Of a stretch of 64,000 bases of DNA, positions 5,188-10,755 are shown piece by piece. Origin of the DNA: a virus (lineage: Duplodnaviria; Caudoviricetes); IMG/VR virus record IMGVR_UViG_3300002307_000018, positions 1 through 64,000 of that record; one strand, 5' to 3'. The stretch's first letter is position 1; every line of letters begins with the position of its first letter. The notes below the pieces were generated by a model, which worked only from the letters and a program-made list of their open reading frames with translations, did not search any database and had not been told where the DNA came from. Position numbers and translations under genes: made by a program.

Positions 5188-5760
5188 TTATGTGAGATGT
5201 GTTATAAGATGTAGTGCTTCCTTCGACGGTTCGCACGGTTGAGTAATATTTTGATTTGAGGAAAGTTGTTTGACCTTTTCTTTGTTGTGAGCAAAGAACG
5301 ATTCAAGTGTGCAGATCATCCAAACTCCGTAGTCCTTGGTGTCATACACTGAAAAGTTATGACCTCCAAACCACTTATGCTTGGCTTGAACAGCAACATA
5401 CCGACCTTTACGATTGAACTTCATCATTAAGATGTTGAGATCGTCAGGATCAGATGCTACCATCAGTTGTTCAATCCACGATTCTAATTGCTTAGACTCG
5501 TCGAACAACTGGTGGAACTGAAAGTCCGCGTAAAACTTACACTCAGCGTTGAACAGTGGGAAACTTTGTCCGGGAATAATGTCCCCTTTGAAGTTTCTGA
5601 TTTGTCCCTCGTGAAGTATCTGCTTACGATGAGCATTCGTGCCACCTGTATAGGCGCCGGAACCGGGTGCTCTCATGAAGTTCTCGCCGTACAGATCACT
5701 CAAGTACTTTGAAACTTCACGTTCAAACCCACTACCTTTGTTTTTGCTTTTTGATGACAT
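5188..5760 (-). CDS. Holliday junction resolvase, PD-(D/E)XK (Hjc-like)
   Basis: KNKGSGFEREV...RAPGSG...GDI...AECK. Start at 5760 is preceded by TAAGTA-N5. Confidence 0.8.
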   Translation of the reverse strand: MSSKSKNKGSGFEREVSKYLSDLYGENFMRAPGSGAYTGGTNAHRKQILHEGQIRNFKGDIIPGQSFPLFNAECKFYADFQFHQLFDESKQLESWIEQLMVASDPDDLNILMMKFNRKGRYVAVQAKHKWFGGHNFSVYDTKDYGVWMICTLESFFAHNKEKVKQLSSNQNITQPCEPSKEALHLITHLT

Positions 5761-5800: not shown

Positions 5801-6019
5801 TTAGATCCAACGCAATGCAAACATAGTGGCATACTCTTCACGAGCAAAGTACCACCAAAATCCACGAGTGTGTCCCGAATACAGGTACATCCACGGCCGG
5901 TCCTCATCTACTGAATCTCTGTACAATGCTTCGGGCCCAAAATGTTTAATGCACCATTCAATACGCTCTTCAAGTCCCCCGTGTGGCATATCTTCCGTGT
6001 GTATCTCTGCTGCTATCAT
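5801..6019 (-). CDS. Small paralogue, C-terminal xxMFALRW family
   Basis: Ends WYFAREEYATMFALRWI; start overlaps the upstream stop (ATGA). Confidence 0.75.
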   Translation of the reverse strand: MIAAEIHTEDMPHGGLEERIEWCIKHFGPEALYRDSVDEDRPWMYLYSGHTRGFWWYFAREEYATMFALRWI

Positions 6020-6330
6020 CCAAACCTCAATGCAAGCATAGTAAATAGTTCGTTTTTGATAACGTATCTAAGATACGGGTATGATCTATTCAATGGATAC
6101 GCTGGTTTAACAGGCGAGTCAATGGGTTTCCATTGATCAATCGGATACTGCTCAATCCAAGTGCATACCTTAAGTTTGGTATCAACCACGCAATATCCTT
6201 TGGGAACATCGTAGTCTGTATCATTTGAATCAATCAGTTTAAAATCGGGTTCAGGGCGCATAGGAAGAACAATCTCTGAAAAATCAATCTCACTCACAGT
6301 CACTCCTGGGTTCAAGCGAATCTTTGTCAT
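6016..6330 (-). CDS. Small paralogue, MLALRF family
   Basis: Ends RYVIKNELFTMLALRFG. Confidence 0.75.
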   Translation of the reverse strand: MTKIRLNPGVTVSEIDFSEIVLPMRPEPDFKLIDSNDTDYDVPKGYCVVDTKLKVCTWIEQYPIDQWKPIDSPVKPAYPLNRSYPYLRYVIKNELFTMLALRFG

Positions 6331-6365
6331 TATCCAAACCTCAATGCAAGCATAGTAAATAGTTC
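6018..6365. repeat. 34-bp perfect direct repeat (6018-6051 and 6332-6365)
   Basis: atccaaacctcaatgcaagcatagtaaatagttc occurs twice and encodes ELFTMLALRFG on the - strand. Confidence 0.95.
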
Positions 6366-6683
6366 TTCAGTGATAATGTATCTAGGTTCTCTATGACTCT
6401 CAACTGCAATCCATTGACCAACAGGATTTGTTATTATCCAATCGGCAACAGTATAGCTCACATCAATCAAGCACCAACCATCTTGAGTGAAATTGTCATC
6501 ATCAACAAGTTCAAACTCGCGCATCTTAACGGCATCAGGATAGCGTACGCGCAGTGTATGAATCTTACCAGTAGGCCCAGTCATAGGCTGTACGCTGCAG
6601 ATATCATTCGCTATAATATTGGGTGTTACTTTTCTTATCAAGTTTGACAATGCTTGTATGTGAATGTTAAAATTGTCGCTCAT
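6330..6683 (-). CDS. Small paralogue with an N-terminal major-capsid (Gol-like) segment
   Basis: ALSNLIRKVTPNIIANDICSVQPMTGPTGKIHTLRVRY fused to a domain ending ELFTMLALRFG. ATG 6683 overlaps the upstream TGA. Confidence 0.75.
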   Translation of the reverse strand: MSDNFNIHIQALSNLIRKVTPNIIANDICSVQPMTGPTGKIHTLRVRYPDAVKMREFELVDDDNFTQDGWCLIDVSYTVADWIITNPVGQWIAVESHREPRYIITEELFTMLALRFG

Positions 6684-6964
6684 AGCCAACTCAGTGCAAA
6701 CAAGACTGCCTTTTCTTCATCTTCGATATCAACGTAGATACCATACTTGCAATCTGTCGAGCTACCGTCATTAAGTCTGTACATTATTTCCCATCCATCA
6801 CCCTGTGCTTGAGTATACATTTTATCATCTCCAACGTGTCTTTTCATTTTGTTCCAATCATCTCCGTGAAAATGTGCAGAGTCAGATGGCCCAATGTGTT
6901 CGATCATCCATATGATCATACTTACTTGTACACGCCCGTGATCGCTAACGTGCAATCGTGTCAT
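6680..6964 (-). CDS. Small paralogue, LFALSW family
   Basis: Ends IEDEEKAVLFALSWL; ATGA overlap with the gp46 stop. Confidence 0.7.
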   Translation of the reverse strand: MTRLHVSDHGRVQVSMIIWMIEHIGPSDSAHFHGDDWNKMKRHVGDDKMYTQAQGDGWEIMYRLNDGSSTDCKYGIYVDIEDEEKAVLFALSWL

Positions 6965-9051
6965 GTTACCAACTCATCCGCTTGTTCATAGGAAGTAAAC
7001 CCACCGTCTTTGACAACCTTGAGTACACTGCCCACTCTGCTTGTCAGTTCATCACGATGCGAGACCAAGAACACTGACTTGTTTCTGCGACGTGTCATGT
7101 CTTTCAGTAAATGGATTGAGTTCTCAACTCCAATCGTATCCAGACCATTGTCTACAAGTTCGTCAATGAATAACAAATTGACAGAGGAATATAAAGATTC
7201 CCACACATCACGAAAAGCAAATGACAGTCCAAGAATAATGCGTGTACGCTCACCTCGACTACAATTGTCAAAGTCAAGCGGACGTCCGAGATCCGTGATC
7301 TCAACAGACAAATCATTCATGAACAGCACATTGTGTGGCAGTCCGAGTGCATCCAAATAGTGTGCAAGACGCTGATTAAGATACGATAAGTTCTGTTCGA
7401 TAATCTTCTTGCGAACAAACGACTTCTTATTGGTCAGCAAATCGATCAAGTATTCTTGATGACCGGAGATGCGTGTGAGTTCGTTGATACGATCCCATGA
7501 AATCTCTTGAACGGCGTTCTTCGTCATATCATCCAACTGCTCGGCATACGGATCAGTCTCACTGTGCTTGTTGGCAATCTGATCCAGGAGTGACTCAACT
7601 CGTGACGAATGCTTGATAGCCTCATTTTCAGTCTTGTAGTGTGTCACTGGTTCTTCGCCGCACACAATCTCGTCCGTAGAGATATCAAGAATCTGTAGTT
7701 CATACGGGTCTTCCGCTTGACGTAAGTTCTCAATCTCTATCTTTAAGTTTATGACAGTGTAGCTATGCTTGATCGCCTCACTTTCTGTCGCATAATGAGT
7801 CACGGGTTCGGCTATCATATCAGCCCAAGTCAACTCCTCAGCGGCACGTTTGTCAGCTTCAAGTTGATGTTCACGATCTACTGATGCGTCGAATGCTTCG
7901 GTCTTTGCAAACATCACTGCACTGTGATTGTCATCATGAAAATCTTGATTACAAGCATAACACTTGTTCTCGGTAAGCGTCGTGATCTCTTTGCCCAGTT
8001 TTATTCTGAGTTTGTTTTCTTTTTCAAGATCGGAGTTAATACGTTTCAACTCCTTTTCAAGAGTCGCTTGTTTGATTACTTCTTGTTTGTACACAGCCAA
8101 GTCTTTGTGAGCCTGTAATTCAGCCTCAATATCGATTGCGTTTAGCTTAGCAAGACGTTCACCCAGTGCCTTGATATCATCAAAGCGTGTTTGCTTCCAT
8201 ACCGATTGTTTTTTAACTAAGTTGTCGTAATTATTTTTTTTCGCAAGACAAGCAAGATAAATGGAATGGTCTTTGTGAGCCTGCAATTCTGCTGCAATGT
8301 CGATCAAGTTCAACTGATCATACTCAGCCACAAGAGTGTTCAAATCTTCATCATGCTTACTCACCCACAGTCGTTGTCTGCGCTGCAAACCCTCAATCTG
8401 TTCTTGAATACGCTTGTTGGCCTCTTCGACCGCACGAATACGAAACTGTTCAACCGTAATCTCGTCTTTGGTTTGTTTGTTCAGTGCTTTGATCACTTCT
8501 GCCTTCTCCGACAAGATCGTGATGCCCAACAACTGTTCAATGATCGTACGTTGATCATTGGCTTTCAAGGCCAAGAATGGTTCGTTGTATGTGTTCAGTC
8601 CAACAATGTGTCGAAACATATCAGAACTCATCATCAGCACACGCTCAATAGCATCCTGAGTTTCACGACTGTCACCCTGAGAGTCATTGGTCTCTTCGCT
8701 CTCAAGTTCTTGATTGTTCACGAAGAACTTCAAGAACGTAGGCTTACGTCCACGCTCAATACGATACTCAACATCATCAACAGTAAACGTGACAGTCACG
8801 ACCATGGCCTTGGCATTGGTTCGGTTGATCAAGTTGTCACGTTTAATGCTGTTAATAGCCGATCCGAATAACGCATATGACAGTGCTTGAAGTATCGTGG
8901 TTTTACCTGTTCCGTTTTTTGCCCCATCCCCGCCCAAATCGAGATTTTCTCCGAGCACCAACGTTAAATCTTTATTATCAAGATTAACTGACTGAACTAC
9001 TGCTCCGACTGAAAGAAAATTTTTAGCAGTTAAGGTTTTGATCTTTATCAT
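6961..9051 (-). CDS. gp46: Rad50/SbcC-like recombination exonuclease ATPase subunit (T4 gp46)
   Basis: Walker A NGTGKTT, zinc hook CYAC, signature CSRGE, Walker B LLFIDE and D-loop GLD, with long coiled coils. Confidence 0.95.
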   Translation of the reverse strand: MIKIKTLTAKNFLSVGAVVQSVNLDNKDLTLVLGENLDLGGDGAKNGTGKTTILQALSYALFGSAINSIKRDNLINRTNAKAMVVTVTFTVDDVEYRIERGRKPTFLKFFVNNQELESEETNDSQGDSRETQDAIERVLMMSSDMFRHIVGLNTYNEPFLALKANDQRTIIEQLLGITILSEKAEVIKALNKQTKDEITVEQFRIRAVEEANKRIQEQIEGLQRRQRLWVSKHDEDLNTLVAEYDQLNLIDIAAELQAHKDHSIYLACLAKKNNYDNLVKKQSVWKQTRFDDIKALGERLAKLNAIDIEAELQAHKDLAVYKQEVIKQATLEKELKRINSDLEKENKLRIKLGKEITTLTENKCYACNQDFHDDNHSAVMFAKTEAFDASVDREHQLEADKRAAEELTWADMIAEPVTHYATESEAIKHSYTVINLKIEIENLRQAEDPYELQILDISTDEIVCGEEPVTHYKTENEAIKHSSRVESLLDQIANKHSETDPYAEQLDDMTKNAVQEISWDRINELTRISGHQEYLIDLLTNKKSFVRKKIIEQNLSYLNQRLAHYLDALGLPHNVLFMNDLSVEITDLGRPLDFDNCSRGERTRIILGLSFAFRDVWESLYSSVNLLFIDELVDNGLDTIGVENSIHLLKDMTRRRNKSVFLVSHRDELTSRVGSVLKVVKDGGFTSYEQADELVT

Positions 9052-9707
9052 GTGTTCTCATTTAATTTGTGTTTACAATTATTTCCGTGCCAACGCCTCA
9101 TTGCGATTCCTGATCCAACTGTACCGCAATAATCACAAGTCACCGTGACTGATACGTTCTTTCTTTGATTTTCCTTGAACTCATCCGAACGAGTTATATT
9201 TCCAGTCATTGTTTCGCTGACTCTCTTTCTCAACTCTACGCTCCAATCATGTGGATTTTTGCCCTCTTTTGCTTTTGAAATATTCTGCTTTCTTTCGTTC
9301 GACATAGGTCCTCGTGGCTGAGAACGTTCTATTCTCAGTTCAGCCGCTCTAACGTCTCCGAATATTTCTTCCCAAGATTTTCCAAGTTTAGCCTCACGCT
9401 GCTTTTGTTTTACCAATTCGGGATCACTGAAGTTCTCAACGCCCGGCTTAAACCCGCCTGAACTTAACAGAATGTTCATGTTCATATCATTATCGATGTG
9501 TTCAATGATATATTTTTCTTCCAAAGTGAGCAGTTCATCGATATCATCAGCATAGATGAGTATTTCTTTGGTCAACGATGATTTATCAATGATGCCAGTT
9601 ACCCATGCTCCTGAGCCAAGATATCCATCGTTCTCATCAATAGTAGAGTGCCGCCCGATATAATATAGACCTGACTGATGAGTGATTTTATATACAAAGT
9701 GCTTCAT
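9048..9707 (-). mobile_element. Free-standing GIY-YIG homing endonuclease (Seg-like) with NUMOD-like C-terminal repeats
   Basis: FVYKIT...YYIGRHST...DGYLGSG...LEEKYI. Inserted between gp47 and gp46 with 4-bp overlaps at both ends. Confidence 0.85.
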
Positions 9708-10720
9708 AAATTTCTATAAATTTCTAGCAATAGTTTCTTGTCGAATGCTCCATCTTGTAGCTCTTCGATTTGTGATTGTACAATAGAGTCAATGGATTCA
9801 AACTGAGTATTAGAGTTATCAGTACCATCACCCTCAAGCGTAGTCTTGACCGGAATTAGGGTAAGTTCTCGCAAGTGGTGTTCAGGCATCAACTTCTCAC
9901 GAATGAATGACGCTTCCTCGAATGAAATATCAATGTCAAGATTGATCTTGACATAGCCATCACGCGGCAACAATCCCTCCGGATCATCTAGCACACTTGA
10001 CAGATTGTACACACGAAATTTCGGCGCACTGGGCCACGAACGGAATTCAGGATCCTTGCCCCATTCAATGATCATCATACCACGAGCATCATCTCCAGCA
10101 TCGGAAAAGTTGTGCGGAAACGCATTGCCCATATAGCAGATGTTGCGCTGCACTTGTCGCTTGTGAAAGTGCCCGCTATAGACTTCTTCAAATCCAGAAA
10201 AATGCGAAGCCTTGACCTCATTGTGATCAGGCATCTGAATCATAGCGTTCATGTAAAAGTTTGGGAGTTCAAGATGTCCGAACAAGTATTTGTTTGACAG
10301 CTTTGAGAATTTCTTCCATTCATCTCCAATAACCCACGGAGAAATGGTTACATCACCCTGTGAGAACCAGTCATTGACAATGGTAACATTGGGAAGATGC
10401 TTACCCCACTCGACCGAATGAACATCACGCTTGTCACGATAGTACAAGTCATGATTACCCGGGATAAAATACACATGGTCAAATGCAACTGAGAGTTTTT
10501 CCAATGCTCTCAGTCCGAATTGAAGTGTTTGAATGTTGATGGCTGCACGATTGTGATTCCAATCGCCCAAGAAGAAACAGGTTTCGCAACCCTCTTGTTT
10601 TGCCTCTTTGATAAACCACTCGACGAAGTTTGAACAGTCTGCGTTGTGTTGCAGACTGTTGTTCTTCATTCCAAAGTGAATGTCCGTGAAAAATGCTGCT
10701 TTCTTAAATAGTGTAGTCAT
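9704..10720 (-). CDS. gp47: Mre11/SbcD-like recombination nuclease subunit (T4 gp47)
   Basis: Metallophosphoesterase motifs TDIHFG, LGDWNH, GNHD, GHLE, SGHFH. Start placed at ATG 10720. Confidence 0.95.
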   Translation of the reverse strand: MTTLFKKAAFFTDIHFGMKNNSLQHNADCSNFVEWFIKEAKQEGCETCFFLGDWNHNRAAINIQTLQFGLRALEKLSVAFDHVYFIPGNHDLYYRDKRDVHSVEWGKHLPNVTIVNDWFSQGDVTISPWVIGDEWKKFSKLSNKYLFGHLELPNFYMNAMIQMPDHNEVKASHFSGFEEVYSGHFHKRQVQRNICYMGNAFPHNFSDAGDDARGMMIIEWGKDPEFRSWPSAPKFRVYNLSSVLDDPEGLLPRDGYVKINLDIDISFEEASFIREKLMPEHHLRELTLIPVKTTLEGDGTDNSNTQFESIDSIVQSQIEELQDGAFDKKLLLEIYRNL

Positions 10721-10726
10721 GTGTCG

Positions 10727-10755
10727 ATTATACATGAGTCGAGTAGACAAAGCAA
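10727..10755 (-). promoter_or_regulatory. Sigma70-type promoter, probably leaderless
   Basis: TTGCTT-N17-TATAAT, then 6 nt, then the ATG of gp47; no SD. Confidence 0.6.

Follow-up and report, generated by a model that had tools for sequence, protein, structure and literature searches.

A probable two-part mini-protein joining the capsid N-arm/Gol segment to a small carrier domain in large T4-like phages

The first 64 kb of the 264,637-bp IMG/VR virus record IMGVR_UViG_3300002307_000018 (Duplodnaviria; Caudoviricetes; CheckV completeness estimate 74%), hereafter the window (64,000 nucleotides), contain a gene for a 117-amino-acid (aa) protein, P0001, that carries near its N-terminus a segment resembling the Gol stretch of gp23, which is phage T4's major capsid protein (MCP). 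Read from its ATG, the open reading frame (ORF) occupies positions 6330–6683 on the minus strand; the ATG overlaps the stop codon of the upstream 94-aa gene (ATGA), and the stop codon overlaps the start of the next gene (TAATG). Two parts can be told apart. Residues 8–50 (6534–6662, minus strand) form a capsid-derived module, supported by the Pfam Gp23 match, BLASTP and conservation, which corresponds approximately to T4 gp23 residues 91–133. Residues 57–117 (6333–6515, minus strand) form a carrier domain, supported by AlphaFold2 and hhalign, with the order beta-alpha-beta-beta-alpha and the C-terminus EELFTMLALRFG. An initial annotation had marked positions 6540–6653, which encode residues 11–48 (ALSNLIRKVTPNIIANDICSVQPMTGPTGKIHTLRVRY), as a free-standing Gol peptide grafted onto a small non-capsid protein. 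We are highly confident that the gene has this two-part build, namely an old copy of the MCP N-arm/Gol stretch under purifying selection joined to a carrier domain with about 20 paralogs, and that it represents a widespread family for which neither Pfam nor PHROG has a dedicated model.

Gol is a 29-residue region of gp23 that binds domains II–III of EF-Tu, preferring EF-Tu-GDP, and inhibits the EF-Tu GTPase, whereby the e14 protease Lit cuts EF-Tu; no other part of gp23 is as conserved among the relatives of T4 (PMC3014915). In the unexpanded T4 head, gp23 is disordered as far as residue 105, and this portion faces inward, where it probably meets the scaffolding core; after expansion these residues form the N-arm and N-fist (PMC9546572).

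The match between P0001 and this region lies far beyond chance. Pfam Gp23 (PF07068) aligns residues 11–69 with profile positions 7–61 (E = 2.5e-14, 53.9 bits, the curated cut-off being 24.4 bits), and PHROG 138 (major head protein) matches with E = 6e-14. Inside the Pfam alignment lies the stretch that pairs with the T4 Gol peptide (gp23 94–122), where a recount by hand agrees with the 16 of 29 identical residues, without gaps, that had been given initially. The T4 string quoted there is also correct, as it occurs letter for letter in the PDB gp23 chains 5vf3, 8t9r and 8gmo aligned with the MCP of a relative, starting at residue 29 of the mature protein (residue 94 of the precursor). With the MCP of its own lineage, P0001 shares 23 of 38 residues (P0001 15–52, MCP 64–101; BLASTP E = 9e-16), which together with the Gp23 profile match supports the proposed derivation of the segment from an MCP. 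The sequence shows an identity of 0.68–0.74 to the MCPs of jumbo or aquatic T4-like phages and of 0.53 to that of T4. The captured piece is nearest to the best-matching MCP types (0.74, as against 0.68 for its own clade), but the gap amounts to about two residues in 34 and favors neither a self nor a foreign origin. Of the 376 Gp23 profile positions, P0001 matches only 55, with neither the P-domain nor the A-domain present; on its sequence, P0001 is not a capsid protein.

The remainder of the protein belongs to a different domain. In an AlphaFold2 model based on a 63-sequence alignment, residues 57–117 reach a predicted local distance difference test score (pLDDT) of 86–96 and residues 1–56 one of 54–72, the latter forming a helix followed by a disordered stretch, that is, a flexible N-terminal arm. 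By hhalign, the Gol-bearing family matches 18 Gol-less paralogs over the carrier (probability 94.8%, E = 5.2e-8, 42 aligned columns), and in this respect, too, the initial description of a graft holds. The capsid piece on the one hand and the homology of the carrier to a multigene family on the other make P0001 a capsid N-arm piece on a phage-specific carrier. For the fold of the carrier, no convincing relative emerged. Foldseek against the PDB with a first whole model of low confidence (pLDDT 65) found nothing, Z did not exceed 4.6 when the better model was compared with the PDB, which revealed a common alpha/beta arrangement only (TFIIH p8, the T4 UvsW N-domain and ACT-like proteins), a search of AFDB clusters with the carrier model produced no convincing fold relative, and the ESM Atlas returned unnamed viral clusters only.

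About 20 small ORFs (60–135 aa) in the 264.6-kb record end in ...[ED]xDAxLFxL[KR]W, none of which was identified as a Pfam or PHROG family. They stand in arrays of tandem 60–140-aa genes with overlapping stop and start codons, at 5801–6964 in the window (four members) and at 109991–110398, 129320–130924 and 158231–160898 of the record, with about 16 members outside the window. The relatives L086 and L088 have arrays of about 15. Pfam and PHROG scans of 21 carrier paralogs yielded no family except Gp23 on two Gol-bearing members; in the present genome, one paralog of the roughly 20 bears the module. In most family members, an amphipathic C-terminal helix closes with ...L(K/R)W(S), and the three small genes neighbouring that of P0001 end in a like motif. 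In the paralogs, a helix containing Trp (often WCxxxFG) comes before the C-terminal helix with the family motif. The final codons of this motif seem to act at the same time as a ribosome-binding site for the gene that follows, and its conservation may therefore partly be at the nucleotide level. In the window, a GAGG in ...TTG AGG TTT GGA TAA TG lies about 9 nt before the overlapping ATG (6325–6350; also 6678–6690), and in relatives ...AAG TGG AGT contains GGAG.

The two-part architecture recurs widely. A word-index search returned 20 small proteins of 81–147 aa with 42–98% identity to P0001, and an exhaustive profile search gave 1429 matches; among the best 150 representatives of 50%-identity clusters, about 60 are proteins of 90–147 aa that cover the whole profile, module and carrier alike. 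With 20 small proteins and about 60 clusters sharing the architecture, P0001 is not one-off debris. The initial annotation would have been refuted by a segment absent or decaying in related genomes; instead, the segment recurs in relatives and is conserved there. A conservation alignment comprised 63 members, two of them close relatives and the others 23–47% identical to P0001. Its nearly invariant positions (at least 90%) are A25, V31, Q32, P33 and M34, all in the module, and W82 as the only one in the carrier. Comparing the 63 small proteins position by position with 57 capsid sequences, we found the core PxxIAxxIxGVQPMT kept about as strictly in the small family as in the MCPs. The flanks are relaxed relative to the MCPs (RR to RK, a variable Met before the Pro, and PVG to PTG), and the beta-strand IHTLRVRY that follows the core is loosely conserved. 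Some members retain only ...IRKVMPxxIAxDIVGVQPM, and the minimal ones (P0056, P0062, P0067 and P0078) end the module at VQPM and pass directly into the carrier; the minimal module therefore closely coincides with the T4 Gol core.

The same stretch is exceptionally fixed in the capsid itself. Across the MCPs of the jumbo clade (L091:14874–16070, L095:17430–18626 and about 60 IMG/VR loci, L004–L083), the N-arm stretch NRVILPVIRRVMPTVIANE..GVQPMTGPVGQIHTLRVRY is essentially invariant in about 60 sequences that are about 70% identical overall, which argues for a constraint beyond ordinary packing. The N-arm of these MCPs spans about 40 residues around GVQPMTGPVGQIHTLRVRY, and the 10–20 residues just past it are hypervariable, both in what they are and in how many there are. 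A search for related loci in IMG/VR returned mainly capsid genes, which were used for the capsid alignment.

The age and constraint of the module were judged at the DNA level, which for the family covered seven genes. The module and the lineage's MCP gene share 56% nucleotide identity, and 7 of the 23 identical residues use the same codon. With synonymous sites thus near saturation, the similarity has been held for long at the protein level. A recent gene conversion from the capsid gene was considered as well and rejected on the 56% nucleotide identity. In deep pairs, nonsynonymous divergence (dN) is 0.19–0.29 for the module core as against 0.41–0.76 for the carrier, with synonymous divergence (dS) at or near saturation in most pairs. 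Over short distances the picture differs. Two lineages whose MCPs differ at 1 of 398 residues have small proteins about 85% identical, with nearly all changes in residues 1–50; the module shows dS 0.53 and dN/dS 0.39, indicative only with about 28 synonymous sites, and the carrier dS 0.14 and dN/dS 0.14. This fourfold gap in dS inside one gene points, as an indication, to exchange of N-termini between lineages rather than to simple divergence. The motif is thus the protein's most constrained part in the long term, inside a locus of fast turnover.

This turnover extends to the neighbouring genes. When the window is compared with L095, the 94-aa gene has a dS of 0.06, gp46 one of 0.42 and the 72-aa gene one of 1.5; the MCP gene, compared between L091 and L095, has a dS of 0.125. 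A 104-aa sister paralog (6016–6330, minus strand), whose carrier part is 41% identical to the carrier of the Gol-bearing P0023, has VLPM in place of VQPM, lacks the stretch after it and gives no Pfam Gp23 match. It is absent in L084 and L092 and present in L085, the loci being otherwise collinear, and a contig of run X4 joins 6017 to 6332, skipping it; this paralog is a presence/absence polymorphism in natural populations. In a second natural variant, 5882–6341 is replaced by 144 other letters. On a 341.9-kb contig, the Gol gene is found together with its 72-aa neighbour in another array that follows two ClpP genes downstream, where the window's genome has a Gol-less array. Older events are visible, too: in L088:1667–2370, a 99-aa and a 135-aa gene, both Gol-bearing, stand in tandem, and as they belong to two deeply diverged subfamilies, the duplication must be old.

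The window's array comprises, besides the genes for P0001 and its 104-aa sister, a 94-aa carrier paralog without the capsid module (6680–6964, minus strand; from the ORF list and paralog comparison), which ends in ...EEKAVLFALSWL, and a 72-aa carrier paralog (5801–6019, minus strand), which ends in ...EEYATMFALRWI and is 74% identical to L086:10297–10515. In relatives, the 72-aa paralog adjoins the Gol-bearing gene or lies one paralog away from it, in two genomic contexts. As the only member tried, it gave no tblastn match in 50,697 cultured phage records. Immediately upstream of the array, with overlapping stop and start, lies the gene of a gp46-like SbcC/Rad50 ATPase (6961–9051, minus strand; ORF list, with SMC_N and AAA_23 Pfam matches on an orthologue), and downstream lies that of a PDDEXK endonuclease (5188–5760, minus strand; Pfam PDDEXK_15, E = 4.7e-28, and gene calls in relatives), whose start is likely MSSKSK, as in the relatives. 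The placement in a recombination operon, as initially described, is borne out by these two flanking genes. A 219-aa ORF (9048–9707, minus strand) sits between the gp47-like (9704–10750) and gp46-like genes and matches the homing-endonuclease family phrog_314 (E = 9e-25), with a weak NUMOD3 motif match; it is absent there in L084, L085 and L092, where gp47 leads directly into gp46.

The gene order is shared by close relatives. Orthologues 98% identical to P0001, with the same start called, lie on contigs of 352,926 and 355,126 bp with matching order. In the relatives, this order runs gp55-like, gp47-like, 696-aa gp46-like, 94-aa, 117-aa, 104-aa (some contigs only), 72-aa, 67-aa and PDDEXK nuclease; the 67-aa paralog, seen in L084 and L085, is missing from the window. 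The 117-aa ORF is the sole Gp23-like sequence in the 264,637-bp record, and it had been described as far from any capsid gene. That remoteness is an artefact, because the record is truncated just before the head module: in the 98%-identical relatives, a 398-aa MCP gene stands about 13 kb away. Walking along a relative's contig, we found the head module to consist of portal, S77 prohead protease, scaffold-like protein and the 398-aa Gp23-family MCP (P0022), with the P0001 gene outside it. P0022 is 63–66% identical to the MCPs of Pseudomonas phage PA5oct, Vibrio phage 2.275.O, Sinorhizobium phage Phosso and Escherichia phage A4, which places the phage as an uncultured member of that jumbo T4-like clade; the source would be an uncultured T4-like jumbo phage of about 350 kb from freshwater.

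The stretch occurs in metagenomic sequencing runs with freshwater, lake or estuary labels, most of which contained less than 0.3 of the sampled words. In addition, a metatranscriptome library labelled marine (run X24) contains a 151-nt contig that is 97% identical over 6498–6648, at a depth of 2 and with DNA carry-over possible; a second contig of this run spans 6700–6849 with 17 differences. The two contigs hint at transcription only weakly. Scans for promoters and terminators, and a search for the T4 late-promoter motif TATAAATA, gave hits at chance level and hence no indication of timing. No phage-encoded Cpn10 or Cpn60 was found in the 74%-complete record. Two ClpP-like genes lie directly upstream of a small-ORF array (G000:C1 126299–127889 and L086:5745–7380), and in L086 they are accompanied by genes for ClpX, ClpS, HSP20, peptide deformylase, ribosomal protein S21 and NifU/Fe-S proteins. 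The phage group is therefore unusually rich in proteostasis genes.

What might such a protein do? The initial annotation had named as candidate functions a decoy for defences, a modulator of EF-Tu and an inhibitor of competitor capsid assembly. We propose, with a probability of roughly 0.35, that the module serves as a portable binding tag or mimic that would engage the partners of the nascent capsid N-terminus. In this proposal, which leans on the structure model and on analogy with T4, the flexible N-terminal arm would contact a partner of the newly made MCP N-terminus. Candidate partners, as in T4, would be EF-Tu, whose domains II–III Gol binds, and GroEL, to which the N-terminus of T4 gp23 strongly targets fusion proteins (PMC3012670, a review). 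The tag would then bring the carrier domain to the host's translation or folding machinery, or else occupy that machinery. Expression might precede the late burst of capsid synthesis, as the packed run with gp55-, gp47- and gp46-like genes suggests by analogy with T4. We favor this reading because the layout is that of the experimental N-terminal fusions, and because the part that is kept is the Gol core, not the strand of the capsid fold. As a broader and decidedly more speculative extension, which we think unlikely, the N-arm/Gol stretch might be an address tag that large T4-like phages have repeatedly joined to different small domains, for delivery either to EF-Tu or GroEL on the ribosome side or to scaffold or portal on the prohead side.

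Several observations speak against the binding-tag proposal. Paralogs in which the motif is lost or degraded (P0055, P0072, P0110 and the window's 104-aa neighbor) persist, and the motif is therefore dispensable for the carrier. The short-range dN/dS of the module, 0.3–0.4, and its raised dS indicate mosaic exchange under moderate constraint only. The conservation of the motif could also reflect a role within the small protein itself or in capsid assembly. EF-Tu is very abundant, so its stoichiometric titration would be costly. The choice of EF-Tu and GroEL as partners is carried over from T4 and its host E. coli, and the early timing is deduced from gene order alone. A complex prediction with the mini-protein family and the lineage's MCP scored 0.00 and is evidence neither for nor against.

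Among the alternatives, a role on the assembly side deserves consideration. Here, the N-arm copy would bind the scaffolding core, the portal or a neighboring capsid subunit. The protein would then travel into the prohead, as one of its internal or ejected proteins, or adjust how capsids nucleate or how large they become. In T4, the probable core contact of gp23 up to residue 105 involves this very stretch, within which A94V and G97S alter capsid length and M98 contacts the portal (PMC9546572). T4 also loads its diverse internal proteins via short N-terminal targeting sequences (PMC3012670), and in the relatives the portal, protease, scaffold and MCP genes lie about 13 kb from the gene. Nevertheless, the gene is located among recombination genes and small ORFs, sharing its strand with the gp46- and gp47-like genes, outside the head module, and only one of about 20 carrier paralogs has the module. 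Moreover, the beta-strand belonging to the ordered capsid fold is precisely the part that the family has relaxed or deleted, and a 61-sequence alignment inspected by eye has no conserved column for an (L/I)xE protease site after the module, although the specificity of this clade's protease may differ. On balance, we regard an assembly role as unlikely, though the likeliest of the alternatives.

The fast turnover of the locus would suit two further explanations, both of which we hold to be improbable. One is a relic chimera, in which the captured capsid fragment is now a mere N-terminal extension or structural element without a capsid-related partner. The arrays are indeed mosaic, with whole genes coming and going and with neighboring genes spanning the above range of dS (0.06–1.5) between the same two lineages; the motif has been lost in some paralogs, and the arm has no confident AlphaFold2 structure. 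However, VQPM and the Ala upstream of it, which are invariant in the MCPs, show the strongest conservation within the small protein as well, across at least 60 clusters only 23–47% identical to P0001, dN of the core is lowest at deep divergence, and the near-saturated synonymous sites relative to the MCP gene imply long retention at the protein level. A relic thus fits the conservation pattern poorly. The other explanation, for which we see the slimmest prospects, is a counter-defence decoy. It would occupy an abortive-infection sensor such as Lit, which cuts EF-Tu at Gly59-Ile60, or CapRel and leave the sensor untriggered, or else use it up early. Lit and CapRel are said to detect the MCP via short sequence motifs (bioRxiv 10.64898/2026.01.04.697583), and competition with a trigger has a precedent in DSAD1, which reportedly competes with the tail tube protein for the sensor DSR2 (PMC11087589). 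The family keeps the core with a few flanking differences from the MCPs (those at RR, the Met and PVG noted above), and its cassette-like gain, loss and exchange in hyperplastic arrays are as expected of arms-race genes. Against this, in T4 free Gol peptide together with EF-Tu activates Lit and does not block it (PMC3014915), and a faithful mimic should therefore trigger the sensor. The remaining probability goes to something else.

To judge from all of this, P0001 is a real, selected and apparently undescribed family member. The initial statement that no stand-alone Gol fusion had been described agrees with the literature searched, in which we found no published description. With P0001 and its relative P0026 as queries, tblastn against the 50,697 cultured phage records gave one match per record, its capsid gene, with no second copy, and no record covered at least 80% of either query. 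The two-part architecture is found so far only in uncultured large T4-like phages. Its significance lies in that a peptide placed on an unrelated small domain separates Gol's own function from capsid architecture, and Gol's normal role becomes directly testable with one small protein, be it a tag, a mimic or a counter-defence tool. Should the address-tag view be true, these phages would possess a natural modular tag-and-cargo system, and it would explain why Gol is the most conserved part of T4-type MCPs. The analysis also documents a large, unannotated multigene family of small proteins, with about 20 copies in this genome. What it newly provides is the family identity of the carrier, the minimal and decayed variants and the real location of the capsid gene, as well as the finding that the N-arm is invariant in capsid proteins but mosaic as a module of the small genes.

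How does P0001 compare with known systems? It resembles the Gp23 family (PF07068; PHROG 138) by a profile match above the curated cut-off, but has 117 residues where the lineage's MCP has 398 (about 400–520 in the family), and its residues 57–117 are a different domain. The likeness to DSAD1 is one of concept, that of a small phage protein acting at the binding site of a structural trigger; the difference is that P0001 copies the trigger, and the abstract on DSAD1 gives no sign of a trigger copy (PMC11087589). Another counterpart is T4 Gol itself, with a homologous stretch of 16 identities in 29 residues and the shared GVQPM core; the T4 peptide, of similar size, is functional alone in binding EF-Tu domains II–III (PMC3014915), and the minimal family members end near the same place. 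Unlike P0001, however, in which nature has set the peptide before an unrelated domain in a gene of its own, the T4 peptide resides within a 521-aa MCP, and its free form is a laboratory construct. Targeting of GroEL by the N-terminus of T4 gp23 was reportedly described by Snyder and Tarkowski in 2005. P0001 shares the layout of such GroEL-directed fusions, with a piece of gp23 placed before another protein (PMC3012670).

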